Below are positions 8,276-52,822 of a stretch of DNA of 64,000 nt, in pieces. The stretch is from a bacterium (GTDB taxonomy: Bacteria; Patescibacteriota; Minisyncoccia; Phycocordibacterales; UBA1006): positions 54,734 through 118,733 of the forward strand of contig JBAWXN010000002.1 in assembly GCA_037144045.1 (NCBI GenBank). Reading direction: 5' to 3'. Numbering within the stretch: position 1 is the first letter of the stretch; every line of letters starts with the position of its first letter. The notes under the pieces were generated by a model. It made no database searches and was not told where the DNA came from. It saw only the letters and a program-made list of their open reading frames with translations. Position numbers and translations under genes: made by a program.

Positions 8276-8375
8276 ATGTGATAAAGTTAAAATACCTGAT
8301 AATCATAGCATGCTTGACTCGCGTCGTGCTATTTGCTATGGTAATTAGTGTACTAATAACACTATATCATATCCT

Positions 8376-15038: not shown

Positions 15039-15124
15039 AGTATAGATAGAGTATACAAAATATCATGTCTGTGATATATTGTACTTAATACACTAATTAG
15101 TTCATCTTAATAAATTTCATCAAT

Positions 15125-15748
15125 ATGATTGCATTCCTAATTACCATTCTCTTTCTGGTTGCCATAGTATATGTCCTTACCAGAATTATAGCTCTACTAA
15201 ACATCGACATGCAAAATGGTTTCACTCCAGGCGGAGAGCTTGGCGTGAAAGAAGGTGACGTAATTATACCAATAATTAACCGACTCACCTTCTGGTTCAT
15301 CCATATCTTTCGCGCTCTTGTCGTATTTTCTAGAGACTGGCATCCGCGTGTTTCTAAACACTTCAAGGAATTTGGCGGCAATTGGTCAACCCACTGTGTA
15401 ATTAATACACATAGTGCGGAATTCCATAAGGATTTGTTTGTTCCGAAAAATGCCAACATTCTTTCAAAAGGTTTGTACGAAGACGACCAAGCCTACTCGG
15501 CATTCGATAAGAATGCTCGCATCAACGGCATGGACCTAGCCACCTACTTGCGCAAGAAAGGAATAAAGATCCTCTTTGTCACCGGTCTCGCAACAGACTG
15601 GTGTGTGAAGGAAACTGTCCTAGATGCGCGAAAAAATGGATTCTGGGTATTTGTAATCACGAGCGCTATGCGTCCCGTGAATTTGAAACCTGGAGACGAA
15701 GAACGTGCCATCAAGGAAATGAAGGCCGCCGGTGCCATCATTATCTAA
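15125..15748 (+). CDS. pncA: nicotinamidase/pyrazinamidase (isochorismatase family)
   Basis: ALLNIDMQNGF (Asp), FSRDWHP, WSTHCV (catalytic Cys) and GLATDWCV. The N-terminus has an extra 20-aa hydrophobic extension, so the start is uncertain. Confidence 0.8.
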   Translation: MIAFLITILFLVAIVYVLTRIIALLNIDMQNGFTPGGELGVKEGDVIIPIINRLTFWFIHIFRALVVFSRDWHPRVSKHFKEFGGNWSTHCVINTHSAEFHKDLFVPKNANILSKGLYEDDQAYSAFDKNARINGMDLATYLRKKGIKILFVTGLATDWCVKETVLDARKNGFWVFVITSAMRPVNLKPGDEERAIKEMKAAGAIII

Positions 15749-15816: not shown

Positions 15817-17136
15817 ATGACAACCAATAGAACTACAGAAAACCCAAAAACATTCTCAAGTCTTAATCTCGGACAGCTCGACGATTCGATGTTGAACGGC
15901 CAGATTGTTACTTCACTTCTTGAAGATGACTTTTATAAATTTTCCATGGGACAGGTGCTTTTCGACCATCCAGAATATGGCAATGAAATAATGGTTTGGC
16001 GATTCAAATGCCGAACTAAAATCGCACTTGGTGAATATATTACCGAGGCAGATTTCATGAACGAATACCACCATGTCACGAAACTGCGAGCAACAAAGAC
16101 TGAACTACATTACCTCCGAGGAACCAATGAATACGATGTCCGCATGTTTACTGAAGAGTACCTCGAACACCTTGCAAATCTCCAGGTACCTCCCGCAACA
16201 TTTCATGTAACCCCTGATAATCATATCGAAATTGAAGTCGCAGGACCATGGAGTCATGTGATGCATGCAGAAATGCCCATTTTGAAAATAATCAACACCC
16301 TCTTCTATCGCAGTCAGTTAAAAAATATGTCTCGGATACAACGAGAAGCGATCTATGCAGAAGGAATTAAACGACTCCATGGAACGATACAGCAAATCAA
16401 GGAGCATCCGCATGTTAAATTTTCTGATTTTGGAAACCGTCGCGCATTCGGACCCGTGTGGCATGATTATGTAGTGGCTCGATGTGCGGAAGAATTAGGT
16501 GACCAATTTATTGGGACTTCGAACGTTGCCCTTGCATCTAAATATGATCTGTCACCTATCGGAACCTGTGCTCACGAACTTTCTATGGGAATCACTGCAC
16601 TTATGTTCGACGGCACCGGACAGTCCGTAAAGGATTCACTCAACCGACTCCATGAAATTTGGTGGAATAAGTATGGTCAAGGACTCTCAATTAGTCTTCC
16701 CGATACCTACGGCACGACATTCACCCTTGATCTTATGACGGAACAAATGCTCCGCGACTGGAAAGGATTCCGTATCGATTCCAAAGACCCCATGGTGGCT
16801 ATTCCCGAATTGATCGAAAAATATACCGCTCTAGGTATCGATCCAAAAACAAAAATGGCAATTCCTAGTGACGGGCTCACTGTTGAATCAATGATCGCCA
16901 TCGCTGATACATTCCAAGGACAGATGAAAGTATCGTTTGGTATTGGAACGAATCTTACGAACAATATGGGTCTCAAACAACTCTCTATTGTGGTAAAACC
17001 ATATTCACTCGGAGGAAAATACTGCGTGAAACTTTCCGACAACCTCGAAAAGGCTATGGGAGAACCAGAGACCGTTGCTGCTTACAAGAAAGCACTCGGA
17101 TATCACGAAACCTATGACAAAGAAACTATTGTTTAA
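15817..17136 (+). CDS. pncB: nicotinate phosphoribosyltransferase
   Basis: LLEDDFYKFSM (PncB N-terminus), DFGNRRA and GTSNV motifs. 439 aa. Confidence 0.85.
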   Translation: MTTNRTTENPKTFSSLNLGQLDDSMLNGQIVTSLLEDDFYKFSMGQVLFDHPEYGNEIMVWRFKCRTKIALGEYITEADFMNEYHHVTKLRATKTELHYLRGTNEYDVRMFTEEYLEHLANLQVPPATFHVTPDNHIEIEVAGPWSHVMHAEMPILKIINTLFYRSQLKNMSRIQREAIYAEGIKRLHGTIQQIKEHPHVKFSDFGNRRAFGPVWHDYVVARCAEELGDQFIGTSNVALASKYDLSPIGTCAHELSMGITALMFDGTGQSVKDSLNRLHEIWWNKYGQGLSISLPDTYGTTFTLDLMTEQMLRDWKGFRIDSKDPMVAIPELIEKYTALGIDPKTKMAIPSDGLTVESMIAIADTFQGQMKVSFGIGTNLTNNMGLKQLSIVVKPYSLGGKYCVKLSDNLEKAMGEPETVAAYKKALGYHETYDKETIV

Positions 17137-18996: not shown

Positions 18997-20190
18997 TTAT
19001 ACTCTTGTACGAACTTTACCATTACCACCAATTCCTGATAAGCCTTTGTCGAGCTTGTCCCATGGAATGGTCGCACCTAACTGAATCATGGCCGCAATAT
19101 AACGGTATTCTTCATCAGGAACAGTAATTTTAGGGAATTCGATAATTGCCAAGGTGAAGCGAGTAATGTTTCTTTCTAAGCGAACATAATCGGCACCAAC
19201 TGCAATATCAAGCTGCTTCAGCATTTGATCGCGATTGATTGCGCCTACTGCGGCAGGAAGAGATGGATTCTCTAAAACCTCTTTAATGCGCGTAGCGTCA
19301 TAAGCCAAGGCTTTTGCAATCGGAATACCGAGTCCTGCAAACACCTTATTAATGCTTTCATTCACTGCTTCTGCTTCGTCATGCAAGCCGTTAGTTTCTG
19401 GTGGGGTAATCATACCAGACATTAAGCCAGTCTTTCCACCACCTAACTGTCCCATTAATAACATCGCAATATTGGCACTACTACCCGCTCCTGCATTGTA
19501 TGCTTCAAGCCACTGTGAAAGCATTTCGTTGAAGCCACGCAATGAACCCCAAAGATTTGCTTCTAATTTTGCAAGAAATGCTTTTTGGCGAGCATCGCTC
19601 ATGAATGAGCCTTCGATTCCCATAGCGTTCAATACCTCAGCATAACTTCTGGTAACAACCAGCTTTTGAAGCTTAAAGTACTCAGCTCCTACCGGTTCAG
19701 CTTGCTCTTCTGCAAACACTTCCATTTTTTCTTTGATAATCTTTGGGAGTCCAAACAGTCCAAGCTTATTTGCTATTCCTGCTTTTACAGCAGAAAGCAC
19801 TTCAGTCTTTCCTACTTTCAACTCACCACCAACTTTCAGAGAAGCAACAAAGCTTTCATCTTCGGGCACACTTGGCAATACTGCATCATACGCATTTGGA
19901 GTAGCACGTTCCTCTGCAACTACAACCGGCGCACCGCGCAATTTAGCGAGGTTCAACTTAAGTTTCCCTAATGGGATATTAAGCGACCCAAGCGCTTTAA
20001 TTAATTCCTCATCGCTGAAAGCTTCCTTACTGGAAAGCACTTCGAGAGCCGCAGTAGCTGATTTTTCATCCACTGGATCGCCAGTGTGAACTGCAAGCAA
20101 CGCAGAAATTTCATCGAGGTTTTTTTCTACCGCCTCGGCAAAGGGCTGAACTCTGTCGTTCCAACCCTTAAAATAATTTGTTGTACTCAT
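18997..20190 (-). CDS. hypothetical protein (397 aa)
   Basis: No confident family. Contains a Gly-rich stretch NAGAGSSANIAMLLMGQLGGGKTGLMSG. Confidence 0.3.
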   Translation of the reverse strand: MSTTNYFKGWNDRVQPFAEAVEKNLDEISALLAVHTGDPVDEKSATAALEVLSSKEAFSDEELIKALGSLNIPLGKLKLNLAKLRGAPVVVAEERATPNAYDAVLPSVPEDESFVASLKVGGELKVGKTEVLSAVKAGIANKLGLFGLPKIIKEKMEVFAEEQAEPVGAEYFKLQKLVVTRSYAEVLNAMGIEGSFMSDARQKAFLAKLEANLWGSLRGFNEMLSQWLEAYNAGAGSSANIAMLLMGQLGGGKTGLMSGMITPPETNGLHDEAEAVNESINKVFAGLGIPIAKALAYDATRIKEVLENPSLPAAVGAINRDQMLKQLDIAVGADYVRLERNITRFTLAIIEFPKITVPDEEYRYIAAMIQLGATIPWDKLDKGLSGIGGNGKVRTRV

Positions 20191-20342
20191 TACTTTTTCT
20201 TTTTTAGTTTAAAAATACAATTTCTACAATCAAGATATCCCATTTAAAGATATTTGTCAAGCAACCTGTGGATAAGTGTAATTTGTACACTAAAAAACAG
20301 ATTCTTGCGAATCTGTTGATACTATCTCCTAGTATTATGTTG

Positions 20343-21737
20343 TTATAAGAGCATTTTATCATCCTCCGTAGGGCCAAATGATACCATTCTAACCGGAACC
20401 TTGAGCTGCTCCATCAACTGCTGTGCGCAGAGCTCGGCAATTGCACCATCATCAGCGTAATCTAAAAGATTATGACTAACAATGTTTGGCGTGCACTGCT
20501 GTAGCAGTTCCCCGAGCTTTTGTTGACGGCTGAAGCAGTCCTCAGGTTTTCCAGTAAACAATTTCATGTCACCGTGTTCGGTAAAAAACGAAGGATCTGT
20601 AGCATTGGTATAGCTCGTGCATAGTTTCCAATCACCCATTACTTTTACTTGATCAAACCAAGTAATTGCAAGTGCATCGAAAAATTGAGGACCACCGCAG
20701 GCAGCAATCGCATAACGAAGCGCTACAGCATCAAGCGGACCGATACGAATCTTCCCCTGCCAACGATTATCGTCCTTACTACTATCAGGTAGCATATGCG
20801 GAAGCATTTCTGGAGATTCGGTAACGAGAGGGCCTGCACCGTGGCGGACTTGGTATGCACGACTAATGCCAAGCTTTACCATACGTCCATCATACCCACA
20901 TTCATTAATCATCTGGAGTGTATTACTCGGCAAGGTTTTAAGATAGCTGGTATGCGGATGAAAGCCAACATAACGATCAGTAAGAACCCCATGAGAACTT
21001 TCCACAATAACCTTACCTTCCTGTCCTAAAATATCGCGCTTCAGATATTCCAAATCAACTATTTTTACCAGACTTGCGAACTTGTTAAATTCTAGAACAA
21101 TGCGATTTACAAAATCATCGTCATTTAATAGTTCTAATTGCTGACTCGCAATCATCCGGTCAGTATCTGGAAATTTCTGAACTAATTCAACAATAGGTCG
21201 GAGTTCTACACGTTTCATAGTGCGTACTGCCTCCAATCGTGCGCGTAATGTAGATGCATTACAATCTTTCGCATAAATCGCGAGCTCAGGATATTGCTCT
21301 GCATCTTTCAGCGCTTCTCCACCTCCTATTCCTACCGTACCTTTTGGTTTATCGCCTCGCGCTAATTCTTTGAGCTTTGAGGAAATACTATGGAACGGAG
21401 TAATGCAGAGCGCATCCTCATCAACAGTGACAAGGTCATACACATTACTCACTCCTGATTCATATTTCAGAATATTAGCTTCGTGGATAAAGCGATAAGG
21501 TTCAATTACAAACAATTTACTGATGTGGGTTCTGAGTCCTTCAAAGGTCCCACAGCCCATCTGACTAAATACTCCTGATTGACCACGACTTGTTTTAACT
21601 CCGTGACCACCCTGAGCACCTCCAACTTTGATGACGGTATGTGCACCTGGGAAGGTACACAACTTATGTACCACACCTCCCTTGCCTCCATCACCAGGAC
21701 CTAGATCGGTTACTGTATAGAGTGTTTTGTCTTCCAT
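20343..21737 (-). CDS. divergent adenylosuccinate synthetase (PurA/PurZ) family ligase
   Basis: Core PurA blocks are recognisable: LGPGDGGKGG (cf. GDEGKGK; Asp13 kept, Lys18 replaced by Gly), GGAQGGHGV (cf. NAGHT; catalytic His kept), ESSHGVLTD (cf. EGAQGT), RAYQVRHGAGPLVTE (cf. KAYTTRVGGGPFPTE), and IGPLDAVALRYAI (cf. GWLDLVALRYA). 464 aa with insertions. Confidence 0.55.
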   Translation of the reverse strand: MEDKTLYTVTDLGPGDGGKGGVVHKLCTFPGAHTVIKVGGAQGGHGVKTSRGQSGVFSQMGCGTFEGLRTHISKLFVIEPYRFIHEANILKYESGVSNVYDLVTVDEDALCITPFHSISSKLKELARGDKPKGTVGIGGGEALKDAEQYPELAIYAKDCNASTLRARLEAVRTMKRVELRPIVELVQKFPDTDRMIASQQLELLNDDDFVNRIVLEFNKFASLVKIVDLEYLKRDILGQEGKVIVESSHGVLTDRYVGFHPHTSYLKTLPSNTLQMINECGYDGRMVKLGISRAYQVRHGAGPLVTESPEMLPHMLPDSSKDDNRWQGKIRIGPLDAVALRYAIAACGGPQFFDALAITWFDQVKVMGDWKLCTSYTNATDPSFFTEHGDMKLFTGKPEDCFSRQQKLGELLQQCTPNIVSHNLLDYADDGAIAELCAQQLMEQLKVPVRMVSFGPTEDDKMLL

Positions 21738-23065: not shown

Positions 23066-23926
23066 CTATACAGGATAGGCTGCGAACTTGTGAAACCCAA
23101 GAGGCCAGAGTGACTTGATGAGCTTGTAAAATCGAGTATGTGCTTGTTGTGCATCTGATTCTGCTCCCGCTTTGAATTCTTTCAATAGATCTTCATAGCT
23201 AGAATTAATCATTTGCTCATCCGGCACAAGAGTCCCTGTTTCTAAATCTGCACCTAATACCTCAAGAACCGCATCGGTAACCGCTGCGATTTCCTCGGTA
23301 GTTTCCTGTGGAGAAAGCTTAGTTTCAATAACCGCCTTACTCCAATCGAATACTGCCACATAGTGCTGTTCACGATTGATTAGAATGTTTTCTGTGGTTA
23401 AATTATTAATAACCACATTAATACTCTGAGTGAATACCAACATTTTGAGTAGCTTACCAAGTATCCACGCGCTCGTTCTCGGATCCACACGGACCTGGTC
23501 GCGAGACGTTATGAACGACAAAGGTGCAAGCTCGTTTAATTTTCCCGAAGGGTTAATGTTTGGAAATCCAAGCACGATTACCCTGCGGTTTTCATGCTCG
23601 GTCATAACAAAGGTCTCAACGACCTCAGGAAAACAAAAGTGATAATTCAAAGGTATCTTTTCAGGATACTTTTTCGCAAATTCTGCTTCGATTACATCTG
23701 ATTCGCTACGCATCGTTTTTAAAAGGTACGCCTCACGGTCGAGCACAGGATTGTGCTCAGCCTTTTTGGCTACCTTAAAAATTGCCGTAGTTCCGTCTTC
23801 GAGTACGCATTCGCGTAATCGGTAAATGTCAGTCTCGCCAATTTCTTGCCTGACCTGGTACGTCTTGCCCGCTGGGCTTCTTATTACTATGTCCATTACT
23901 GTTTCTTTTTTAAATTTAGTTATCAA
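23066..23926 (-). CDS. protein-kinase-like fold protein lacking the catalytic HRD Asp (putative pseudokinase)
   Basis: Gly-loop-like EIGETDIYRL, VAIK-like AIFKVAKK, an alphaC Glu, NNLTTENILI in place of HRDLKPENIL, and DWS in place of DFG. About 70 nt upstream of the vWA gene. Confidence 0.4.
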   Translation of the reverse strand: MITKFKKETVMDIVIRSPAGKTYQVRQEIGETDIYRLRECVLEDGTTAIFKVAKKAEHNPVLDREAYLLKTMRSESDVIEAEFAKKYPEKIPLNYHFCFPEVVETFVMTEHENRRVIVLGFPNINPSGKLNELAPLSFITSRDQVRVDPRTSAWILGKLLKMLVFTQSINVVINNLTTENILINREQHYVAVFDWSKAVIETKLSPQETTEEIAAVTDAVLEVLGADLETGTLVPDEQMINSSYEDLLKEFKAGAESDAQQAHTRFYKLIKSLWPLGFHKFAAYPV

Positions 23927-24100
23927 AAAACAAATATGCCGTATATGTTATATCAAATTATTAGGATATGTCAATACTTCTCGATGAACTGTATAATTTG
24001 TTGCATTATGGCTTATTTAGTGTTATTATAACACTAAGAATGATCATGTGCAAGCACCTCCTAGTCCCCCTCCCTTGTAAAAGCATGCTACTATAATTCT

Positions 24101-25048
24101 ATGCAACAATTTAGATTTTTTAAAAAAGTAGATGAATATCGTACCTATATCTACGAAGAAATATTCACCCATCACGAATTTAGAAATAACCTTTTTTATC
24201 GTGGACTTATCGAATTCATTATTGAACACCGCGCCCCTATATTCTTCTCACTAACCAAAGACGAGGAATTCTCACATTTTACCCAATACTTTAACGCAGT
24301 GCTCGATCGAGGGGACTACTACAAAAATGATTTCATAAGAAGCATGTATTTTGCGCATGATTTTGTGCATATGCTTTTTAACAATCCTTTGCGTCCTCGT
24401 GATATGACTTTTGAAAAGTATTGCGAAGTACTCAACGTAAACGAATGGATTGCGTCTAATGAAACTGAAGTTTATACCTATTTTAGAATCGATGGTGCAC
24501 GTCACCACGGATTAGATTATACGATTCTCTATGATCTCCTAAAATACGCTGGGCACTCACAACCTGAAATAAAAAAACTGCTTGAGTTTAGAAAGCACGT
24601 AATTGGTGGTGGCGGTGAAGCAGTTCTTGAACAACACCCAGAAGCCACCATGGTGTTTAATTACTTGAGAAAGTTTAAAGAAAACAACAAAGCCTGGTGT
24701 AAGCTTTGGTATGAAGGCTTCCCTGAAATACCTGCGGCTTATACTGACGAACGCATGTGCCTCCCTGTACTTGAATACGATAAAATACTACGACACTACA
24801 CTCCTGGTATCCACGTGAACAATCAACAAGAGGCCTACGAGTACAACATGTTGCTCAACATTAAAAACCTTGCACTCCTTGCAGGGTTACCAGAAGAGCA
24901 TATTCCAAAAACTTTTGACGATTGCGAAAAAACACTTGAGCAACTCGAAGGAAAAATCATTATGCCTAAAGTCGCCGAGGAATTTCATTATACTTATATC
25001 AAAAATAAGAAGGTGGGAACTCCTGAGAAAAAAGAACTGAATCCATAA
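24101..25048 (+). CDS. hypothetical protein (315 aa)
   Basis: ORF with its own terminator. No family recognised. Confidence 0.35.
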   Translation: MQQFRFFKKVDEYRTYIYEEIFTHHEFRNNLFYRGLIEFIIEHRAPIFFSLTKDEEFSHFTQYFNAVLDRGDYYKNDFIRSMYFAHDFVHMLFNNPLRPRDMTFEKYCEVLNVNEWIASNETEVYTYFRIDGARHHGLDYTILYDLLKYAGHSQPEIKKLLEFRKHVIGGGGEAVLEQHPEATMVFNYLRKFKENNKAWCKLWYEGFPEIPAAYTDERMCLPVLEYDKILRHYTPGIHVNNQQEAYEYNMLLNIKNLALLAGLPEEHIPKTFDDCEKTLEQLEGKIIMPKVAEEFHYTYIKNKKVGTPEKKELNP

Positions 25049-38891: not shown

Positions 38892-39021
38892 ATATTACGT
38901 TCTCAGGCACTATAAGCGCTTTCGATTGTTGAAACACTATACATGATATCTTACGATAAATCAAATAATACTGAACGTCTTCTTGAGAAAATAAGGCAAA
39001 TAAGGTATAGTATCCCTGCTT

Positions 39022-39095
39022 GCGGCCATGGTTTAGTGGTAGAACACGTCCTTGCCAAGGATGAGATGGGAGTCCGATTCTCCCTGGCCGCACCA
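39022..39095 (+). tRNA. tRNA-Gly (anticodon GCC), CCA encoded
   Basis: Acceptor GCGGCCA/TGGCCGC, D-loop AGTGGTAG, anticodon stem-loop CGTCC-TTGCCAA-GGATG, T-arm GGGAGTCCGATTCTCCC, 3' ACCA. Abuts the cca start. Confidence 0.8.
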
Positions 39096-39097
39096 AC

Positions 39098-40628
39098 GTT
39101 TCACATGAAACACTCTATTAATACTCATTTAATCCCCCAACATGTTTCGCATGTAACAGAATCCCTTAAAGCCGCAGGTTTTGAGGCTTTTGTGGTGGGT
39201 GGATGTGTCCGGGATATTATTATGGGGCGTACACCTAAAGACTGGGACATTACCACAGACGCAGTACCTGAACAGATCATTAGCCTTTTTGAGTCTCAGG
39301 GTAAAAAAGTAGTTTACGAGAATGCTTTTGGGACAGTTGCTCTCATAGAAGAAAACGAACCATTTGATTCAGTTACTCGCCAGATTGAGATTACCCCATT
39401 CCGCAGTGAAACAACCTATTCCGATAATCGACACCCTGATGCTGTTACTTTTTCTAAAACATTGAATGAGGATTTAAAACGACGTGACTTCACTATTAAC
39501 GCACTTGCCTATGACATTGAAAACGACATACTGATCGATAATTATCAAGGTTTAAACGACATTGAAAACGACATACTAAAAACCGTTGGAAATGCTGAAG
39601 AACGGCTTTCTGAGGACGCACTACGTATCCTTCGAGGTATCAGATTTGCCGCACAACTAGGATTTACTGTTTCACATGAAACAATCAATGCTATGTTTCA
39701 CGTGAAACATTTATTGAATAACATATCTCAGGAACGAATTCGGGATGAATTCGTTAAAATGATCGATTCGAACCACCCAATTATTGCACTAGGAATCATG
39801 AAGCAATTGGGTATACTGGAAATGATTATACCTGAATTACTTGAAGGTGATGGCTGTGAACAAGGCGGAGTTCATAAATACGATGTTTTTGAACATTTAT
39901 TGCATGCTTGCCAGCACGCAGCAGATAAAGATTATACGTTCCACGTGAAACTTGCAGCTCTGTTTCATGATATTGGGAAACCAAGAACACGGAGACCTGG
40001 ACAGAAGAAAGCTTGGACCTTCTATGGTCATGAAGTCGTAGGAGCTCGAATGTCGTTAAAGATCATGGAACGGCTCAGGTTTCCTAAGTCAGACGCAGAA
40101 CTTGTTGTGAAACTTGTCCGTTATCATATGTTCTTCAGCGACACTGAACAGATCACACTATCTGCGGTTCGTCGTATGATTGCGAATGTTTCACGTGAAA
40201 ACATTTGGACCTTGATGCAAATTCGAGAATGTGACCGCGTCGGTATGGCAAAACCTGAAGCTCCTTATCGCTTACGTAAGTACCACGCAATGATCGAAGA
40301 GTGCCTTCGTGATCCAATATCTGTTTCACAGCTTAAGATTGATGGCAATTACCTTATGAAGGAGTTACACGTGAAACCAGGTCCTCGTATGGGATGGATG
40401 TTACACGCACTTCTTGAAGAGGTGCTAGAAAACCCTGAAAAGAACACAATTGAGTATCTTTCTGCAAGAATCAACACTTTCCAAGGTTTCACAGATTTAG
40501 AACTTAGAAAATTAGGCGAACAAGGTAAGCAAACTAAAGAAGAATTGGATGATGCTGAAATCACCAAGTTACACGTGAAACATGGGGTTGCAGCTCAATC
40601 AAAGAAGAAGTAATGTTTCACGTGAAAC
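39098..40628. repeat. array of eight near-perfect copies of the 14-bp palindrome GTTTCACGTGAAAC (CACGTG/CATGTG core) within and flanking the cca CDS
   Basis: Copies at 39098-39111 (overlapping the ATG), 39669-39682, 39695-39708, 39938-39951, 40188-40201, 40364-40377, 40568-40581 and 40615-40628 (2 nt after the stop). More copies lie just outside at 38297-38310 and 40812-40825, with half-sites at 39405, 40323 and 40911. The copies sit in two different reading frames. Confidence 0.6.
39105..40613 (+). CDS. cca: CCA-adding tRNA nucleotidyltransferase with C-terminal HD domain
   Basis: GGCVRDIIMGRTPKDWDITT (class II NTase GGxVRD...DxD), RRDFTINALA, and an HD domain ALFHDIGK. ORF 38943..40613 runs through the tRNA-Gly gene, so the start was placed at the first ATG after the tRNA (MKHSINTHL). 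Confidence 0.8.
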   Translation: MKHSINTHLIPQHVSHVTESLKAAGFEAFVVGGCVRDIIMGRTPKDWDITTDAVPEQIISLFESQGKKVVYENAFGTVALIEENEPFDSVTRQIEITPFRSETTYSDNRHPDAVTFSKTLNEDLKRRDFTINALAYDIENDILIDNYQGLNDIENDILKTVGNAEERLSEDALRILRGIRFAAQLGFTVSHETINAMFHVKHLLNNISQERIRDEFVKMIDSNHPIIALGIMKQLGILEMIIPELLEGDGCEQGGVHKYDVFEHLLHACQHAADKDYTFHVKLAALFHDIGKPRTRRPGQKKAWTFYGHEVVGARMSLKIMERLRFPKSDAELVVKLVRYHMFFSDTEQITLSAVRRMIANVSRENIWTLMQIRECDRVGMAKPEAPYRLRKYHAMIEECLRDPISVSQLKIDGNYLMKELHVKPGPRMGWMLHALLEEVLENPEKNTIEYLSARINTFQGFTDLELRKLGEQGKQTKEELDDAEITKLHVKHGVAAQSKKK

Positions 40629-45687: not shown

Positions 45688-46551
45688 ATGAATATATTAA
45701 AACCTCAGTCCATCGAGGAATACATCGTTTCTCTCCTTCAAAAAAATTCTCGTTCTGGCTCAGAACTTCTTACAGCTATTCAATCCAAACGTCCAGGAAC
45801 CACTAAACAGGCTCTGTATGCATCACTCCGAAAACTAAGATCCGATGAAATCGTAGTGGTGCACAAAATGCGGATATCATTATCCAGTATCTGGGTCACC
45901 AAAATGGCCGAATTCTTTACCCTTGCAAAACACTTCTATACCAAAACCACTACAACCGACGAAGGATTTCTTAACCTTGAAGATGGTGACCGGGTGACGT
46001 ATTCATTTAAAAACCCTAATGTTACTGACATTTTCTGGGGACACGCATTCGATATTCTTGCAGAAATTACTCCCATTACTGAACCAGTGTTTCTATACAA
46101 TCCACATGATTGGTTTATGCTAGCTCGTCCAGAAACGGAGAAATTATTGTTTAAGAAGTTTGCTAAAGCAGGGAAGCAATTATTAATATTAGTAGGAGAT
46201 GCCAAGCCACTTGATAAATATATTATTAAAGAATTCGATGGAACGATTGCTCAGTACCATCCAACGAATGAACTTGTTTTTGATAAACGAAATTATTACG
46301 TAAACATCTTTGATGATTTCATTATCGAAGTCCATCTTGATGAAATCACTACAAAGAAAATTGACGAGTTCTACAACACAGCGAATGACTGGAATCCCGA
46401 AAACGAGGCTGTCTTGAAAAAAATTATCGCAAATGAAGGTAAAAATAAGCTTACTATTTCAAAGAATCGAAAGAAGGCGGAACACTTGAAAAAAATATTC
46501 AGGAAATATTTTTATATTAAATCCTTGAAACAAAATACAACCCATATATAA
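45688..46551 (+). CDS. winged-helix transcriptional regulator with a C-terminal domain of unknown function (TrmB-like architecture, fifth paralog candidate)
   Basis: N-terminal wHTH YIVSLLQKNSRSGSELLTAIQSKRPGTTKQALYASLRKLRSDEIV, followed by a 200-aa domain with weak similarity to the other TrmB-like C-domains. Confidence 0.4.
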   Translation: MNILKPQSIEEYIVSLLQKNSRSGSELLTAIQSKRPGTTKQALYASLRKLRSDEIVVVHKMRISLSSIWVTKMAEFFTLAKHFYTKTTTTDEGFLNLEDGDRVTYSFKNPNVTDIFWGHAFDILAEITPITEPVFLYNPHDWFMLARPETEKLLFKKFAKAGKQLLILVGDAKPLDKYIIKEFDGTIAQYHPTNELVFDKRNYYVNIFDDFIIEVHLDEITTKKIDEFYNTANDWNPENEAVLKKIIANEGKNKLTISKNRKKAEHLKKIFRKYFYIKSLKQNTTHI

Positions 46552-47011: not shown

Positions 47012-47040
47012 TAAAACCGGACAGTACGTCCGGTTTTATA
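47012..47040. terminator. bidirectional Rho-independent terminator
   Basis: CCGGAC-agtac-GTCCGG with A4/T4 flanks. Confidence 0.5.
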
Positions 47041-47698
47041 GTGCTTTGTACAATGAAAATATGAGTGCCAGTTGGTCGCCAGGATCAGTACGAGCATCGA
47101 AGAATTCAACACGTTGATCTACTACTTGTAATCCCACTGAGCCAAAGAGGGTATTAAGCTCGTCTTTCGTAAAAAAGTAATACGAGACACCAAATTTTTC
47201 AAACTGTGAATCAGGTGAAATTTTAGGTCGGAACCCAAGGAACCGCTGTGTTTCTTTTGAAAGAGAAACATTAAGCACGTAGCCACCTGATTTCACGACA
47301 CGCTGTATTTCAGATATATATTGATTCCAATCAATAGGATCAAGGTGCTGGAGTACTCCAATATCAGTAACCGCATCAAACGAATTATCAACAAGGGGAA
47401 TGTCGCGTACGTCACCGTGAACAAATCGCGCACGATCAGCATATCCTTCACGTTTGATTTCGCGATTACCTTTTTGAACCACATCATTAATATATTCAAG
47501 TCCGATAACACGGTTTCCATCAGCAACTAATTTTCCTATCCAAAGCCCACGACCTGCACCTACGTCTAACACCAACGCATCAGGCGCAAGAGGGGGAAGT
47601 ACTTGCAAGGCAATGTGATGATAGGGAATATGAGTCCACACATCAGAACCAGTACGATACGCAATTTCAAAATAATTTTTCTGAGCACTGTAATCCAT
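47036..47698 (-). CDS. class I SAM-dependent methyltransferase
   Basis: Motif I VLDVGAGRG, motif II-like RFVHGDVRDIP, post-I acidic residue. Has a small-molecule (UbiE/Type 11) rather than DNA-MTase character. 220 aa. Confidence 0.7.
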   Translation of the reverse strand: MDYSAQKNYFEIAYRTGSDVWTHIPYHHIALQVLPPLAPDALVLDVGAGRGLWIGKLVADGNRVIGLEYINDVVQKGNREIKREGYADRARFVHGDVRDIPLVDNSFDAVTDIGVLQHLDPIDWNQYISEIQRVVKSGGYVLNVSLSKETQRFLGFRPKISPDSQFEKFGVSYYFFTKDELNTLFGSVGLQVVDQRVEFFDARTDPGDQLALIFSLYKAL

Positions 47699-47751: not shown

Positions 47752-48726
47752 TCACTTGTTCTTGTACTCGTTCACCATGCGTACCTCTAGATGAGCAAGT
47801 GGGTGAAGTGGAGTAGGGAGGTTGTCTAATGTGACCCATTTGATTTCATCAAATTTATGCGGCTCACCATTTATGACTTGTTCGCGATCTACTTCAACGA
47901 GGAAAATCATACATAACCAATGTCGCAAACCTCGATCTGATGTACGAAATAAATCATGGTATCCTAGGAAATTTATTTCTTTTGGAGTAACACCATATTC
48001 TTCTCGTAATTCTTTATGAACGGTTTGCACGATCGAATCACCGAATTCAACACGACCACCTCCGAAGTCCCATGCACCATGTTCGTCATTACATTGAATA
48101 CTGCGCTTGTTCATTAAATAATTTCCTTGACCATCATGGCATACATAACAAATAGTAATTGCTGGATAGTCGAGCCCTCTCCGCGACTCAATTTGTTTTC
48201 TTAGTGTGTCATGTTCTCCGAAACATTCGGAAATTACTTTTTTATTTACTTCAAAATTTTCTTCGAAAGAATAATTCGAATTAACTACATAGTTGAAGCA
48301 GGTCGTCCGATCATACACCTCGTTATAAAAATTACAGAAAGATAAGATAGTAGCGACACCTCGTTCCTCGAACAAGGTCATAGGCTTCTCTGATGAGACC
48401 ATATTAATGACAATGTCTCGCCTCGGGTCAAACAAAACACAAAAGTCTCGAGGATTGCGTACGCCATCAAAAATATTTCCCAAATCCTTACTTGAATTAT
48501 TTTTTGCGTGATTAGCAAAAAAATCTGGATCAATTTTTAAAAACTCTTTTGATTGATTGGTTATTCGTTGCGTGTAATCAAATAATGATTCACCTTCATG
48601 CCGTGGAAACTGTTGTTTCAAGTAAGAAGATAGTTGAACCCGCTTATAGTTAAATTGCTCTATAAGAAAATTTCCAAGTGTTGTTTTGCCGGTCCCTGTA
48701 GAACCAATGATAAATACATTTTTCAT
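47752..48726 (-). CDS. fusion protein: N-terminal nicotinamide-riboside-kinase-like P-loop kinase plus C-terminal Nudix hydrolase
   Basis: N-terminus MKNVFIIGSTGTGKTTLGNFL and DPDFF resemble human NRK1 (MKTFIIGISGVTNSGKTTLAKNL; QDDFF). The C-terminus FGGGRVEFGDSIVQTVHKELREEYGV is a canonical Nudix box. Confidence 0.5.
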   Translation of the reverse strand: MKNVFIIGSTGTGKTTLGNFLIEQFNYKRVQLSSYLKQQFPRHEGESLFDYTQRITNQSKEFLKIDPDFFANHAKNNSSKDLGNIFDGVRNPRDFCVLFDPRRDIVINMVSSEKPMTLFEERGVATILSFCNFYNEVYDRTTCFNYVVNSNYSFEENFEVNKKVISECFGEHDTLRKQIESRRGLDYPAITICYVCHDGQGNYLMNKRSIQCNDEHGAWDFGGGRVEFGDSIVQTVHKELREEYGVTPKEINFLGYHDLFRTSDRGLRHWLCMIFLVEVDREQVINGEPHKFDEIKWVTLDNLPTPLHPLAHLEVRMVNEYKNK

Positions 48727-48804
48727 ACGATTTTTTTAGTGAAACTATTTGTTTGTTAAGGAATATTACTTGCACGATAGCAGGGAATAGCTATACTTGT
48801 ATAC

Positions 48805-49620
48805 ATGTCAGACAATATTCGACAACATAAACCCTCCACGAACCCCGAGGACCTGTTATCTAGACTAGGCCTCAGCGATAAAGAATCACATATCTACCTC
48901 GACTTGTTACAAAACGGTCCACGACCTGTCGCAGTTATTGCCAAACGCGCCGGAGTAACGCGCACCAATGGATATGACCTCGTAAAAAACCTCGAGAAGA
49001 AAGGACTCTGTTTTAGCAGTGGAACCACCTATGGTAAAAAAATTCATGCTCATGATCCTGTCGTATTCAAAGAAATTATTGCAGAAAAAAAGCGATCTCT
49101 TGATCACTTAGCAGCAGAACTTAACGACAGTGTTCATGTCTTTAAAAAAACAAAAACGACACCCTACACCAATCATGAGGTCACCTATCTGGAGGGTACA
49201 GAAAATATTAAGAAAATATTTCCCATGATGGCAGCACCTCATGTTTCACAGGTATATGGTGTTGGCTCTGAATTAGAACTCGAAGAATATGTTGGTCGTG
49301 AAACACTTGAGCAATTCCATGAGCAGCGTAAGCGCAATAACACCCACCTTTCAGTCCTCCGAGCAGGACCCCAACGTCTTTCGGGAAATGCGTTTCACGA
49401 TGATGTCGCCTATTTGCGCGAAGTCCGGATTCGCCCTAAAGGTAAGGTTCGACTGAAATCGCAGCTGTATTTATTTGATAACACCATCATTTTCTTAAAC
49501 CTATTCGACAAACCATTCGCAACCATTATTCACAACGAACCCATGTTTATTATGTTTCACTCATGGTACGAATTCATCTGGAATGCTTCTGAAACAGTGG
49601 TTTCACGGAAAAGTAAATAA
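48805..49620 (+). CDS. TrmB-like transcriptional regulator
   Basis: N-terminal wHTH LGLSDKESHIYLDLLQNGPRPVAVIAKRAGVTRTNGYDLVKNLEKKGL. The C-terminal domain ends in the FHSWYEFIWNAS motif shared with the paralogs. The coding sequence carries seven GTTTCAC/GTGAAAC heptamers. Confidence 0.6.
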   Translation: MSDNIRQHKPSTNPEDLLSRLGLSDKESHIYLDLLQNGPRPVAVIAKRAGVTRTNGYDLVKNLEKKGLCFSSGTTYGKKIHAHDPVVFKEIIAEKKRSLDHLAAELNDSVHVFKKTKTTPYTNHEVTYLEGTENIKKIFPMMAAPHVSQVYGVGSELELEEYVGRETLEQFHEQRKRNNTHLSVLRAGPQRLSGNAFHDDVAYLREVRIRPKGKVRLKSQLYLFDNTIIFLNLFDKPFATIIHNEPMFIMFHSWYEFIWNASETVVSRKSK

Positions 49621-49642
49621 CTTCTAAAGTTTTTATAAGCAA

Positions 49643-49677
49643 AAAATAAACCCATCTTGTTACAGATGGGTTTTTGT
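49643..49677. terminator. bidirectional Rho-independent terminator
   Basis: AACCCATCT-tgttacag-ATGGGTTT with A/T flanks. Confidence 0.5.
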
Positions 49678-49690
49678 GAAACGTTTCACA
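49675..49690. promoter_or_regulatory. perfect CRP/FNR-like palindrome TGTGAAACGTTTCACA (swapped-half version of the cca palindrome)
   Basis: TGTGA-N6-TCACA consensus, located between the convergent 3' ends of the TrmB-like gene and the HAD-NadM-Nudix gene. Confidence 0.3.
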
Positions 49691-51190
49691 TTAATTAATG
49701 AGAGCAATAATATCTTGCTCTTCCTCATCAATGAGTTTAGCTAACTGACTTTTAGTTACATAGCGAACTTCAGCGATTTGCGCACCGCGGTAATGAGGAC
49801 TCACGCGCGCAGACTTTTCAATATCCACTTCATAAATCATAGCGCGAGTTTTTATACCCGCCTCACGATGACGCCAATCAGGCACCGCAACATCACCTAA
49901 AAACTTTAACGGTTTTCCACTCAGTTGGGTTTCAAGTTTTGTTGTAACCTTTCTGGTAAGCGCCTCTTCGAAGGTAGTATCCTTTGAAGGTACCATATAC
50001 CCACCAGGGAAACGAAATTTTCTCTCGTCTGACGATGCATACCTAACAATCGCAATTTTACCTTTCGCATTTTTAATGATAGCGCGTACCTGCATAAACA
50101 GCAGCACCTTCGGCTGTCGCAACTGTGCAGCAATAATTCCATGCGCATACGTCACATTAAGTGATTTATGCGACAGTACACGTCTCCGCAAATCAGTGGC
50201 GTTTACATCTGGTATTTCTTCAACACCATACACCGGAAACCTTCCCGTAGGAATGTAATGCTTTCCAAAGCCATCACGACCTTCAATAAGACATACGTCA
50301 TCATTAGCAAGATCTGGTTTCTGAATAAGTGAGGCAATTTGTTTTTCAATTTCAGTAGTCCAAACGCTGTTATAGCGCTGGTTGCGTAATGGAAAAATTT
50401 CATACTGCCTATCGCCATACCCAGCTTCAGTAATTGCTTCTTCAAAAAGTTTTTTGCGAACCCAGAATGGTAACACATTTCTCCCTGAAGGGAACGAGCG
50501 ATCGCACGCTAAAAAAATAATAACCATTTCGCCACGAGCAAACGCTTCATGAACTACTTGCATGTGCCCAACTGTTGGACCATCGGGACTGTGTGTACGC
50601 ATCACTGTCGATGCAACTAAAAATTTCTTTTTAGGACCTGTCAGCAATGGAGTAACCTTGACTGCCTCCAAAAGAAGTGACCAGTGTTTTTTTGGATCAA
50701 AGCCTGCTTTGTCATCCAAAATTAAATTCATGTATGGCTTCTTCGAAAAATCGGCATAGTGAGTATTACCCTGTTCGGGATTTTCGTTTACATAGGTAAA
50801 AATTATTCCTAACTTTTCAAACATTGCCTTGTACTGTTCCACATGATCATCTTTCGATGATGTGTAAATAACAAGCACTATGTCTTTTCGTGCGGAAAGA
50901 GCCTGAAGGGTCGCGAGTGCTCCATCAAAAAAATTTCTAGATATGTCACCACCCGTATAACTGGAACCTAGTACGGTGTCGTGCAAATCTACAAAAATGT
51001 AAATTTTGTCCCATTCGCGTGTACGAGCTTTTACAAACTCAGCAAACCATTTCGCAATAAGGGAATCTTTCATTAATTCTTCTATATTCATTTTTAATCG
51101 TTTTGCGTATTTAACCATTAAAATATGAATAAGTAAAGGGTCTTCATATTTGTAGCATGTCGTGCTATTGTGATCAAAATAAAACAGCAT
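49691..51190 (-). CDS. three-domain protein: HAD-like phosphatase plus NadM-type nicotinamide-nucleotide adenylyltransferase plus degenerate Nudix domain
   Basis: N-terminal HAD-like domain (IYIFVDLHDTVL; LILDDKAGF). The central part matches archaeal-type NMNAT: PTVGHMQVVHEAF (TxGH), NSVWTTEIE (cf. NSIWVSYVE) and NATDLRRRVL (cf. SGTEIRRRML). C-terminus FPGGYMVPSKDTTFEEALTRKVTTKLE is a Nudix box with the catalytic Glu residues lost. Confidence 0.5.
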   Translation of the reverse strand: MLFYFDHNSTTCYKYEDPLLIHILMVKYAKRLKMNIEELMKDSLIAKWFAEFVKARTREWDKIYIFVDLHDTVLGSSYTGGDISRNFFDGALATLQALSARKDIVLVIYTSSKDDHVEQYKAMFEKLGIIFTYVNENPEQGNTHYADFSKKPYMNLILDDKAGFDPKKHWSLLLEAVKVTPLLTGPKKKFLVASTVMRTHSPDGPTVGHMQVVHEAFARGEMVIIFLACDRSFPSGRNVLPFWVRKKLFEEAITEAGYGDRQYEIFPLRNQRYNSVWTTEIEKQIASLIQKPDLANDDVCLIEGRDGFGKHYIPTGRFPVYGVEEIPDVNATDLRRRVLSHKSLNVTYAHGIIAAQLRQPKVLLFMQVRAIIKNAKGKIAIVRYASSDERKFRFPGGYMVPSKDTTFEEALTRKVTTKLETQLSGKPLKFLGDVAVPDWRHREAGIKTRAMIYEVDIEKSARVSPHYRGAQIAEVRYVTKSQLAKLIDEEEQDIIALIN

Positions 51191-51733
51191 ATGAACATTA
51201 AAAAAGCAGTGGTATCGTTCCTTGTTATGAACTTAGGAACATCAGACAGTCCTTGGAATTTATTCTGTGGCTTTGATCCAGAAAAAAACCGTATTGTGTT
51301 TTTCAAAACCCTACGACTTCGATCAATCCCTAACTATTTTTCGCAAGACTCGGTAACTATCACCGTGACTCGTGATAACCAATTTTTTTCTTCGGGAAGT
51401 CCTCAACTTGTGGGACCTAACCATGAAGCGTATCAGCTCGATGGATTGCGAGAAATCTGTGGAGTAAAACATTCAACTGATCAACTAGACGCATTTCATT
51501 TCAATGATGGCGATATCGTTACCGTTGAAAAATCTGACTGGGCTCATGATGAAAACCCTATTGATATCCTTGCCACCCGTAGAACCGTTGGCACACCTCT
51601 TCATCAGGTTTACTCTGTGAATCAACGCACTATCGACCAGTTTAAGAATTTCTTCCAGGATCATCTTAACGTATTAACTACAACAGTGGTTGTGGAAAGT
51701 AATCCGGGACCCAACTACATGAAATATTTCTAA
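51191..51733 (+). CDS. hypothetical protein (possible signal peptide)
   Basis: ORF 51170..51733. The internal start MNIKKAVVSFLVMNLGTS avoids the overlap with the preceding gene. No family. Confidence 0.3.
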   Translation: MNIKKAVVSFLVMNLGTSDSPWNLFCGFDPEKNRIVFFKTLRLRSIPNYFSQDSVTITVTRDNQFFSSGSPQLVGPNHEAYQLDGLREICGVKHSTDQLDAFHFNDGDIVTVEKSDWAHDENPIDILATRRTVGTPLHQVYSVNQRTIDQFKNFFQDHLNVLTTTVVVESNPGPNYMKYF

Positions 51734-52060: not shown

Positions 52061-52822
52061 CTACTTATTCCAGAGCTCTTTGAACACTTCACGCATATTG
52101 TGTGCCATTACAGAATCATGAATTTCAACCAGATAACAAGGTTTCTGCGCTGTAACAATAAGAACTATATACGAGCCAATAATCCACTGAGTACCGGTAA
52201 TATTATTTGTTCCTTTCCAGAAACGAATGTTTCTTTGGTTGATTTTTTCACTCTGCATTTGTGACTCAATATCTGAATCATTTGAAAACATTTTAAGGTT
52301 CACTTCTTTAGGTGCGTGTTTCCAAAACCAAACAATCCAATTTTTGTATTTTTCGACAAAGGTATGATCCTGAAAACCCCACCACGTAGGGTCATTTGCC
52401 AGATTACTTTCGATCCACCGAGGTGTTGCATCATGTAAATACTTATCAATATCTTCCTCGGCAACGAATCTGATTTTTGGTATTGAAAAAGTAGTAGATT
52501 GAGATACCAGTTTTAAAGCATCTTTTAATTCATGGAGACCTTCTTCCTTTTCCCTAAACTCTTTTCTGTCGTGCTCCAAAATTTTGTCTATTTCTTCAGG
52601 TTGAGCAGGGAGATAGTATAATGTCTTGCTTCCAAGATCTTCAATAATAAGACCTCGTGCTTTTAGCTCGTTTGCAACGCTATACACTGTAGTCCGATTT
52701 ATACCTGTTTTTCGTGAAATAGTTACTGGTGCAATTTTTCCGCTTTCTAAGATTAATTTATACACCTTTTTTGCTTTTATAGTTAACCCAAGCTTTTCTA
52801 AGATTTTGTCTAAGTTATCCAT
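52061..52822 (-). CDS. TrmB-like transcriptional regulator
   Basis: N-terminal wHTH LGLTIKAKKVYKLILESGKIAPVTISRKTGINRTTVYSVANELKARGLI. C-terminal domain ending HNMREVFKELWNK. Divergent from the ABC transporter operon. Confidence 0.6.
   Translation of the reverse strand: MDNLDKILEKLGLTIKAKKVYKLILESGKIAPVTISRKTGINRTTVYSVANELKARGLIIEDLGSKTLYYLPAQPEEIDKILEHDRKEFREKEEGLHELKDALKLVSQSTTFSIPKIRFVAEEDIDKYLHDATPRWIESNLANDPTWWGFQDHTFVEKYKNWIVWFWKHAPKEVNLKMFSNDSDIESQMQSEKINQRNIRFWKGTNNITGTQWIIGSYIVLIVTAQKPCYLVEIHDSVMAHNMREVFKELWNK

Follow-up and report, generated by a model that had tools for sequence, protein, structure and literature searches.

The question raised by this locus is whether two genes encoding unusual domain fusions, one on either side of a TrmB-like regulator, constitute a second NAD route in the 64,000-nucleotide stretch of DNA analysed here (the window). 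So the initial annotation had proposed, a nicotinamide riboside (NR) kinase fused to a Nudix hydrolase supplying NMN to a protein made of a HAD-like domain, a NadM-type NMN adenylyltransferase (NMNAT) and a dead Nudix domain. The two coding sequences, i.e., 47752-48726(-) and 49691-51073(-), and the TrmB gene are real genes of a MAG (Table 1); the domain calls for the 49691-51073(-) product stood up to scrutiny whereas the riboside kinase reading of the other did not. With a probability of about 0.55, the former would belong to the bifunctional NadM-Nudix lineage as a derived form, which has acquired a HAD domain and lost the Nudix glutamates. Judged from its sequence, it appears to be a variant of a known NadM-Nudix enzyme, and one that points to an accessory enzyme of NAD reconstitution not yet described.

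Table 1. Features of the locus, with coordinates in the window.
Feature	Coordinates	Strand	Remarks
Class I SAM-dependent methyltransferase	47036..47698	-	Pfam Methyltransf_25/11
MutT/NUDX1-like Nudix hydrolase domain, catalytic residues intact	47752..48174	-	residues about 185-324; Pfam NUDIX 3.5e-19
Orphan P-loop NMP-kinase-like domain	48202..48726	-	residues 1-175; GSTGTGKT, IFDGVRNPRD; generic P-loop matches only
TrmB-family HTH regulator, 271 aa	48805..49620	+	divergent from P-loop-Nudix gene; uncharacterised C-terminal domain; Pfam TrmB 2.5e-11
Bidirectional terminator-like hairpin	49648..49673	.	between convergent TrmB and HAD-NadM-Nudix genes; terminator scan and sequence
Degenerate Nudix-fold domain	49691..50113	-	residues about 321-460 plus stop
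NadM-type (archaeal-type) nucleotidyltransferase domain	50114..50638	-	residues about 146-320
Capless HAD-like phosphohydrolase domain	50639..51073	-	residues 1-145 of 460-aa protein
Probable 5' leader and promoter region, non-coding	51074..51190	-	NCBI 460-aa model, homologue N-termini, overlap with divergent 180-aa gene

Since a convergent TrmB gene and the hairpin at 49648-49673 lie between them, the two fusion genes belong to separate transcription units. Nor is their linkage conserved: the P-loop gene is missing from L002, which keeps the three-domain gene, and in L018, L019, L020 and L021, all four of which also keep the three-domain gene, the whole TrmB/P-loop/Nudix cassette is either missing or in decay. 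The regulator is as initially annotated, its winged-helix domain scoring 43.7 bits against a Pfam TrmB threshold of 25.6; the NCBIfam TrmB/TrmBL1 models reached 20-24 bits for cut-offs of 600-650, covered the HTH only and gave no match to a sugar-binding C-terminal domain. The TrmB gene is kept in L001, L002, L004, L005 and L102, and truncated in L019. In the divergent genomes L018, L020 and L021, the methyltransferase gene is the neighbour retained, directly downstream of the three-domain gene; the adjacency is probably a matter of synteny and not of a demonstrated link in function.

The 47752-48726(-) product is a composite. Its Nudix half is canonical, as had been proposed, with 69.6 bits for Pfam NUDIX (threshold 21.1), an intact REx2EE within the box GRVEFGDSIVQTVHKELREEYGV and PDB matches to 4dyw (1.8e-8) and 4kyx (2.3e-8), while its similarity to NadM-associated Nudix domains is generic (11 bits or less). 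The P-loop half, searched as a profile against the PDB at E<=10, retrieved adenylate and shikimate kinases but no NRK or NadR chain, these weak best matches being of the very kind of unrelated P-loop kinase that the initial annotation had named as contrary to its NRK reading. Pfam AAA_28 matched residues 4-31 only (E 0.0046, below cut-off), and an AF2 model built from 3 sequences (pLDDT 54.9) gave meaningless Foldseek matches (E>1). The "DPDFF" segment sits about 50 residues past the P-loop lysine, whereas the catalytic Asp motif of NRK and uridine kinases is placed just after strand 2. In relatives, the P-loop part stands alone (P0023 and P0024, 176 aa each, adjoining a Nudix gene) and so does the Nudix part (157-183-aa orthologues in L002, L004 and L005); according to the junction alignment, L004 and L005 have the two as separate neighbours, whereas the window, L001 and L003 have them fused. 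The gene is a recent lineage-specific fusion of two adjacent genes. It belongs to a dispensable TrmB-linked cassette, and its product most likely serves general nucleotide housekeeping rather than the phosphorylation of nicotinamide riboside.

As for the proposed route, in which the P-loop kinase would convert NR to NMN, NAD+ would come from the NadM domain and, speculatively, proofreading from the HAD and Nudix domains, it is improbable on balance. Within 3.4 kb there are indeed a kinase, a domain resembling NMNATs and hydrolase folds related to NAD, several related contigs (L001, L004, L005 and L102) retain this synteny, the route would provide the NMN for which no other source is apparent, and the logic of NRK plus NMNAT exists in NadR and in phage NARP3 (PMC13464706), where Bas30_86, like NadR, is an NMNAT fused to a ribosylnicotinamide kinase. 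Compared with NadR and Bas30_86, however, the P-loop domain has no detectable similarity to the NadR or NRK kinase, belongs to another polypeptide and transcription unit and has a MutT-like Nudix domain as its fusion partner; its "DPDFF" is misplaced relative to the NRK motif, five contigs have the three-domain gene without it and no PnuC was noticed among the annotated genes. It could still be an NR kinase diverged beyond recognition. The initial annotation was right that a separate nadD/nadE path lies at 8-17 kb of the window, namely PncA-PncB-NadD-NadE/NrtR; the gene at 10324-10983 encodes NrtR and the real nadD is 11554-12156(-). No NrtR-type operator was found upstream of the 47752 or 49691 genes.

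The 49691-51073(-) product, 460 aa in the NCBI gene model (possible starts are M25, M34 and M40, at 51118, 51091 and 51073, respectively), was correctly described as a non-canonical HAD, a NadM-type NMNAT and a dead Nudix domain. The architecture is very rare, an exhaustive profile search of 1.84e9 proteins recovering as three-domain representatives only P0002, P0025 and P0026, all full-length, and one fragment, and the earlier statement that no such three-domain protein is known to have been characterised stands. NT-Nudix proteins of about 300-340 aa match its C-terminal two thirds (E about 1e-28 to 1e-32). The best-conserved domain is the HAD (59-79%, versus 35-70% for the Nudix part), and the HAD and NT catalytic motifs are invariant in alignment A1. 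An AF2 model of the whole protein was only moderately confident (pLDDT 75.8, pTM 0.48), so the domain packing is not readable.

The central domain matches the fold of solved NadM structures and has intact adenylyltransferase motifs, i.e., R-T-H-S-P-D-G-P-T-V-G-H, N-A-T-D-L-R and the N..W nicotinamide-site motif. The ATP-binding (H/T)xGH following R-[FI]-Q reads RTHSPDGPTVGH in the window, the family form being RIQSP.GPHxGH, which is 4 residues longer than GRFQPxHxGH through an insertion; the C-terminal SxTxxR is present as NATDLR, aligning with NATEFR of Francisella NadM, and both R[FI]Q...(H/T)xGH and [SN][AG]TxxR are retained in three-domain members and two-domain relatives alike (16 and 17 compared). 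The nicotinamide-site motif, P-x-x-D/N-x-x-x-N-x-x-W, is present as FPLRNQRYNSVW, aligning with IPVQDIECNALW of the M. thermautotrophicum NMNAT (1m8f); its Asn and Trp are the nicotinamide-site residues, and W238 is invariant in alignment A1. The curated NMNAT thresholds are not reached (PRK05379, 33.1 bits versus 397; NCBIfam TIGR01527, 14.9 versus 181), and with scores so far below the cut-offs a specificity for NMN, NaMN or another nucleotide can be read from motifs and relatives only. On that footing, the domain likely catalyses NMN + ATP -> NAD+ + PPi, and would recycle NMN beside the separate PncA-PncB-NadD-NadE route. In this lineage, neither NAMPT nor Prs nor PnuC was noticed as a neighbour of the three-domain gene.

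The known bifunctional NMN adenylyltransferase/ADP-ribose pyrophosphatases include Synechocystis slr0787 (PDB 2QJO), Francisella NadM (PDB 2QJT/2R5W) and NatV of phage KVP40 (NARP2). Unlike these, the 49691 product has an extra N-terminal HAD domain and a destroyed Nudix box, falls far below the family cut-offs and has no adjacent nadV or prs. The box, GGYMVPSKDTTFEEALTRKVTTKLE, does not match the canonical GX5EX7REUXEEXGU with its catalytic Glu: RK..TK replaces RE..EE, and RK..xK is found in 16/16 members of the three-domain clade as against RE..EE in 17/17 two-domain relatives, while a DWRHRE motif is conserved. With all metal-binding glutamates lost, the domain is predicted to be no longer a pyrophosphatase; it may instead serve as an ADP-ribose/NAD-binding or scaffolding module. 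Nudix folds that bind ADP-ribose as a signal without catalysis are known in NrtR and in the NUDT9H domain of TRPM2, but are attached there to a DNA-binding domain and a channel, respectively, rather than to enzymes as is this putative ligand-binding domain. With this clade-wide turn of a NadM Nudix domain to a glutamate-free fold, one more enzyme domain has been put to a new use, probably the sensing of a ligand.

In the N-terminal domain, HAD motif I is D29-L-H31-D-T33, followed by T71-S-S (II), K111/K112 (III) and D120-D121 (IV), motifs II to IV being invariant in alignment A1 (T71-S72-S73, K111/K112, D120-D121). Motif I departs from the canonical DxDx(T/V): it retains the nucleophilic Asp as well as the Thr, the Asp+2 is His (DLHDT), and D-[ILV]-H-x-T, hereafter DxHxT, occurs in 75 of the 77 HAD family members. 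The replacement of the general acid/base Asp by His could mean a chemistry other than that of a phosphatase. No Pfam family covers these proteins and no Pfam HAD model matched; the domain hits phrog_1238 at 1.4e-9. The nearest solved relative is BT0820 (PDB 2OBB, E 6.7e-11 with the family profile), which shares the small capless core and the DD of motif IV but has a canonical DFDGT motif I; the corresponding NCBIfam model, NF046079, gave 16.5 bits for a cut-off of 165. The substrate of BT0820 is not known and a literature search found no paper on it.

The large, undescribed DxHxT HAD family regularly accompanies genes that rebuild NAD, in phages as well as in bacteria. In phage annotations, its members are mislabelled "phosphoheptose isomerase." Among 80 viral HAD loci (IMG/VR), 62 have NAMPT, Prs, NadM-Nudix or NADAR no more than 6 kb away and on the same strand (48, 45, 37 and 20 loci, respectively); by comparison, NARP1 or NARP2 is present in only about 5.4% of phages (bioRxiv 10.1101/2024.02.11.579819). 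The crAss-like phage cr126_1 has the order NAMPT-HAD-Prs, and a Cytophagales operon that of NadM-Nudix/NAMPT/Prs/HAD. Independent fusions join the HAD to a NadM-type NT (P0028; PDB 1f9a, 4.8e-9) and to a NadD-type NT (P0089; PDB 2h29, 4.4e-10), and others to Nudix (P0058) or HD (P0123). From the neighbourhoods and the NadM- and NadD-type fusions, it follows that the family is functionally tied to NAD synthesis; a HAD family lacking a Pfam model is thereby linked to NAD+-rebuilding enzymes by neighbourhood and at least four independent fusions, the window protein being one of several Rosetta-stone cases making the link explicit. The matter bears on an active front of phage-bacterium conflict, namely NAD+ depletion and reconstitution (NARP1, NARP2, NARP3; aRES countered by Adpp). 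Phage NAD+ reconstitution modules comprise Nampt and Nmnat in NARP2, and Adps, Namat and Adpp in NARP1-AP, Adpp, a Macro-domain ADPR-1''-P phosphatase, being a direct precedent for an accessory phosphatase in an NAD-rebuilding operon. The putative enzyme considered here differs in having a HAD rather than a Macro fold, and the window gene differs from the phage modules in being chromosomal, bacterial and devoid of NAMPT/Prs partners.

Capless HADs normally act on bulky substrates, small ones usually requiring a cap. For this reason, our favoured, tentative guess is a phosphomonoester on a bulky ADP-ribose/NAD-type nucleotide, e.g., ADPR-1''-P, 2'-P-ADPR or NADP+. The HAD gained by a NadM-Nudix protein at its N-terminus would thus take a phosphate off some metabolite of the NAD pathway; possibly, the DxHxT HAD is an undescribed NAD+ salvage or reconstitution enzyme, found in many phages beside Nampt, NadM-Nudix, Prs and NADAR, e.g., a phosphatase returning such compounds to the pathway, here welded to NadM, with the Nudix turned into a non-catalytic ADP-ribose/NAD-binding module presenting substrate to, or regulating, the HAD site. 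The main alternative, rather doubtful, is an inorganic pyrophosphatase pulling forward the PPi-releasing adenylyltransferase step and, in phage modules, the NAMPT step: (Na)MN + ATP -> (Na)AD + PPi is the only feature common to the NadM- and NadD-type fusion partners, NAMPT, the commonest neighbour, also releases PPi, a HAD-fold pyrophosphatase exists (BT2127), and a good leaving group would tolerate the missing Asp+2 general acid. Yet so small a substrate would sit poorly with a capless HAD, cells and hosts already have dedicated pyrophosphatases, and the P0058 (Nudix alone) and P0123 (HD) fusions are left unexplained.

Two further explanations appear unlikely. Yeast HAD-family 5'-nucleotidases, namely Isn1 and Sdt1, dephosphorylate NMN and NaMN, and the domain might likewise be an NMN/NaMN 5'-nucleotidase or other futile-cycle brake on NAD overproduction, analogous to the Nudix half of NadM-Nudix; with the Nudix brake lost in the three-domain clade another might be needed, and NARP2 reportedly makes NAD+ in excess, with some toxicity (bioRxiv 10.1101/2024.02.11.579819). 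Such a brake would nonetheless be counter-productive in phage modules meant for rapid NAD+ rebuilding, and PDB profile and Pfam searches revealed no similarity to known nucleotidase HAD families. Alternatively, and with little probability, the three-domain protein could be non-biosynthetic, i.e., a fast-evolving accessory or conflict protein such as an NAD/ADPR sensor or a factor against host defence, taken over from the NAD module of a phage. Its gene evolves 2-4x faster than flanking genes in every genome pair (61% versus 84-96%; 52% versus 78-80%), an unusual pace for core biosynthesis, the nearest relatives of the protein, both two-domain and HAD, abound in viral contigs, its Nudix domain is dead and an integrase gene lies nearby in syntenic loci. 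Against this stand the invariant HAD and NT catalytic motifs, a chromosomal position that is stable even between divergent genomes, beside housekeeping genes that are conserved as well (rpsO, pyrG, CCA enzyme), and the fact that no defence genes were identified beside it.

The stretch 47752-51190 holds three real genes, encoding a P-loop-Nudix protein, a TrmB-type HTH protein and a three-domain protein, and homologues of all three are found in the same order in other assemblies. For the three-domain gene, the long open reading frame (ORF) with a mechanical start at 51190 probably begins at the wrong place, since the NCBI model (locus tags WCG20_ in the source MAG) starts at M40 (51073), homologues start within a few residues of M40, and the extra 39 codons overlap the divergent gene upstream. 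The 180-aa product of this upstream gene occurs in all syntenic loci, with 84-91% identity in close genomes, falling to 33-38% in more distant ones, and has no match in Pfam, NCBIfam or PHROG.

Coordinates of the NAD-related genes, palindromes and neighbouring features in the window
Feature	Coordinates	Strand	Remark
Palindrome TTAGTGTAnTAAnnACAnTA	8345-8364		before nadE
NadE	8376-10319		
NrtR	10324-10983		Nudix + NrtR winged helix; directly after nadE
NadD	11554-12156	-	TIGR00482, 125 bits, above cut-off
Palindrome TTAGTGTAnTAAnnACAnTA	15077-15096		before pncA
PncA	15125-15748		
PncB	15817-17136		
Palindrome TTAGTGTAnTAAnnACAnTA	20273-20293		upstream of 18997-20190(-)
Palindrome TTAGTGTAnTAAnnACAnTA	24017-24037		between 23066-23926(-) and 24101-25048(+)
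SAM methyltransferase	47036-47698		
P-loop-Nudix protein	47752-48726	-	324 aa
TrmB-type HTH protein	48805-49620	+	271 aa
Terminator-like hairpin	49648-49673		bidirectional
Three-domain protein	49691-51073	-	460 aa (NCBI model, start M40); long ORF with mechanical start 51190
Conserved 180-aa protein	51191-51733	+	divergent from three-domain gene

The three-domain product had been read in the initial annotation as a non-canonical HAD domain, a NadM-type NMN adenylyltransferase (NMNAT) and a dead Nudix domain, and this reading is right. The HAD domain (residues 1-145) possesses motifs II-IV (TSS, KK and DD) and a motif I of the form D-L-H-D-T, i.e., the nucleophile Asp is kept and the general acid/base at Asp+2 is replaced by His. 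The motifs of the nucleotidyltransferase (NT) domain (residues ~146-320) are intact, including R-x-x...(H/T)xGH and NATxxR, and its N..W segment can be aligned to the site for nicotinamide in archaeal NMNAT. In the Nudix-fold domain (residues ~321-460), the box is dead and reads ...RKVTTKLE; the change from RE..EE to RK..xK is found in 16/16 members of the three-domain clade, while RE..EE is kept in 17/17 of the closest two-domain relatives. The metal-binding glutamates have thus been lost clade-wide; the loss is fixed and no sequencing accident. Among solved structures, the AF2 model (pLDDT 75.8) is matched best in Foldseek by the bifunctional NadM-Nudix enzymes from Francisella and Synechocystis, with E-values of 1e-12 to 1e-14 over ~350-370 columns.

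Proteins of this architecture are rare. Fifteen relatives were retrieved by word-indexed search, and a profile searched exhaustively against 1.84 billion cluster representatives gave only three full-length three-domain representatives and one fragment among the matches listed. The 150 matches listed for the same profile include well over 100 stand-alone HAD proteins, and the profile also matches NT-Nudix proteins of ~300-340 aa (E ~1e-28 to 1e-32). These two groups are much larger, and the protein is thus of the NadM-Nudix type with an additional HAD module, a variant not seen before of the known NadM-Nudix kind. In every pair of genomes, the three-domain gene diverges two to four times faster than the genes around it, with an identity of 61% to the related locus L001 (flanking genes 84-96%), 60% to L004 (74-94%), 72% to L102 (85-91%), 52% to L019 (78-80%, except for the upstream 180-aa gene at 33%) and 42% to L020 (67-73%), which points to gene-specific fast evolution or allele replacement. 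Within the protein, the HAD domain evolves slowest and the Nudix domain fastest.

The HAD domain belongs to what is called here the DxHxT HAD family, after its hallmark His at Asp+2 (75/77 members scored). The family has no Pfam model; against the capless HAD structure 2OBB (BT0820), a profile of 33 members gives an E-value of 6.7e-11. PHROGs places it in phrog_1238, "phosphoheptose isomerase", a label which looks like a misnomer; phage annotations name the HAD gene accordingly or as hypothetical. Its members are linked to genes for NMNAT, NAMPT and Prs. In a scan of GTDB genomes (a set without the lineage of the window), HAD or NadM homologues came from Bacteroidota and Ignavibacteria only: in Cytophagales (Ohtaekwangia koreensis and MAGs), a stand-alone homologue of 143-144 aa lies in an operon NadM-Nudix/NAMPT/Prs/HAD, and contigs of Ignavibacteriaceae and Paludibacter carry one between NadM-Nudix and NAMPT. 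Among viruses, the gene order in the crAss-like phage cr126_1 is NAMPT-HAD-Prs, and 62 of the best 80 IMG/VR loci have NAMPT (48), Prs (45), NadM-Nudix (37) or NADAR (20) on the same strand within 6 kb of the HAD gene; only ~5% of phages have any NAD reconstitution pathway (bioRxiv 10.1101/2024.02.11.579819). A one-strand module NadM-Nudix, NAMPT, (NADAR), HAD(DxHxT), Prs recurs in viral (L022-L101) and Bacteroidota or Ignavibacteria loci (L010, L012-L015, L017).

Independent fusions, here restricted to those verified individually from the 150 listed representatives, bring the HAD domain together with other partners as well. In protein P0028, the NadM-type NT comes first and the HAD second; in P0089, the HAD precedes a NadD-type NaMN adenylyltransferase of a non-orthologous family (PDB 2h29, 4.4e-10); P0058 joins it to an active Nudix domain and P0123 to an HD domain. 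That the HAD is fused in either order, and to adenylyltransferases of two different families, speaks strongly for a substrate that belongs to the adenylyltransferases' own pathway. The central domain of the three-domain protein would adenylylate NMN (or NaMN) to NAD+ (or NaAD), and the HAD domain would take a phosphate off a pathway metabolite. Because the HAD domain is capless, a bulky nucleotide phosphomonoester, i.e., ADPR-1''-P, 2'-P-ADPR or NADP+, is favoured as the putative substrate over the alternatives, PPi and NMN. The glutamate-free Nudix domain may bind an ADP-ribose-type ligand, or merely act as a scaffold, by analogy with NrtR and the NUDT9H domain of TRPM2. A precedent for a phosphatase added to an NAD-rebuilding operon is Adpp, which has a Macro fold, whereas the fold here is HAD. 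No description of such a partner was found in the literature on BT0820, on a HAD partner of nadV/nadM or on "phosphoheptose isomerase" with NAMPT in phages, and the family is mentioned neither in the NrtR regulon paper nor in the viral NAD-ADPr survey, nor in the studies of the phage pathways NARP1/2 and NARP3 or of aRES/Adpp. The wider lead, a putative HAD partner of NAD reconstitution modules that had not been described before, makes the finding moderately interesting.

In the P-loop-Nudix protein, residues 1-175 form a P-loop domain, which is followed by a MutT/NUDX1-like Nudix domain with intact catalytic residues. The N-terminal half of the protein had been taken for a nicotinamide riboside kinase (NRK), an identity for which searches of Pfam, NCBIfam and PDB profiles give no support: Pfam AAA_28 matches below threshold and over the Walker A segment alone, the NCBIfam matches are to the shikimate-kinase P-loop, and the family profile against PDB (E<=10) recovers adenylate kinase 9, shikimate kinases and other P-loop proteins, with no Nrk1 or NadR chain. 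The segments VQLSSYLKQ and IFDGVRNPRD are presumably closer to the NMP-kinase segments hLSxGdhhR and hhDGxPR. Homologues are too few for a good structure prediction (AF2 on a 3-sequence alignment, pLDDT 54.9; Foldseek against PDB, E>1 only); tblastn of the domain against 50,697 phage records gave nothing below E 0.3, and word-indexed searches found seven relatives with the whole 324-aa protein and three with the N-terminal domain, an orphan family for which phylogenetic placement is impossible. The idea that the Nudix domain represents the ADPR pyrophosphatase half "lost" from NadM-Nudix was rejected, the phmmer similarity being generic (<=11 bits). The P-loop (176 aa) and Nudix (166-183 aa) proteins are encoded by separate adjoining genes in the related loci L004 and L005 and are joined directly after ...ECFGE in the window, L001 and L003, so that the fusion is young; L002 has the Nudix gene without the P-loop gene. 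The two domains are probably a nucleotide-housekeeping pair.

The three-domain and P-loop-Nudix genes do not form the one locus that had been proposed. The hairpin lies at the end of the three-domain gene and faces the TrmB gene at its 3' end, and a separate, divergent promoter region serves the P-loop-Nudix gene together with TrmB. In the more distant loci L018, L020 and L021, the SAM methyltransferase gene directly follows the three-domain gene, and L019 retains a decayed copy of the cassette, namely a 153-aa ORF (6216-6677) that covers the TrmB-like regulator over its C-terminal half alone, the P-loop and Nudix genes being gone. TrmB/P-loop/Nudix is therefore a dispensable unit between two syntenic genes and, since synteny is broad (rpsO, integrase, pyrG, CCA enzyme), adjacency within the clade carries little functional weight. 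The observations of the initial annotation largely stand, but its pathway interpretation does so in part only.

A complete Preiss-Handler salvage set lies at 8-17 kb of the window, where 10324-10983 is not nadD but the NrtR regulator, the genuine NadD being encoded at 11554-12156(-). The 20-bp palindrome TTAGTGTAnTAAnnACAnTA (11 matches observed against 1.4 expected) is probably the NrtR operator. No such palindrome was found upstream of the three-domain or P-loop-Nudix gene, and a 3-mismatch match at 51666, inside an ORF, was judged to be chance; the three-domain enzyme thus falls outside the apparent NrtR regulon, in agreement with its suggested independence from the nadD/nadE path. The genes beside the two extra boxes have no Pfam match and may be NAD regulon members not previously recognised. 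An adenylosuccinate-synthetase-like protein (20343-21737(-); weak 112-bit Pfam match) adjoins one NrtR-like box, amid several genes without family assignment.

Within 7 kb, there are two TrmB-type HTH proteins (the one tabulated and 52061-52822) and one possible HTH protein (45688-46551), all of 250-290 aa. The first two have the HTH region alone in common (29% identity, E 4e-8), and the third has no significant similarity to either and no Pfam match. Elsewhere, tRNA-Gly(GCC) (39022-39095) falls within the mechanical ORF 38943-40613(+), the true start of which must therefore be 3' of the tRNA.
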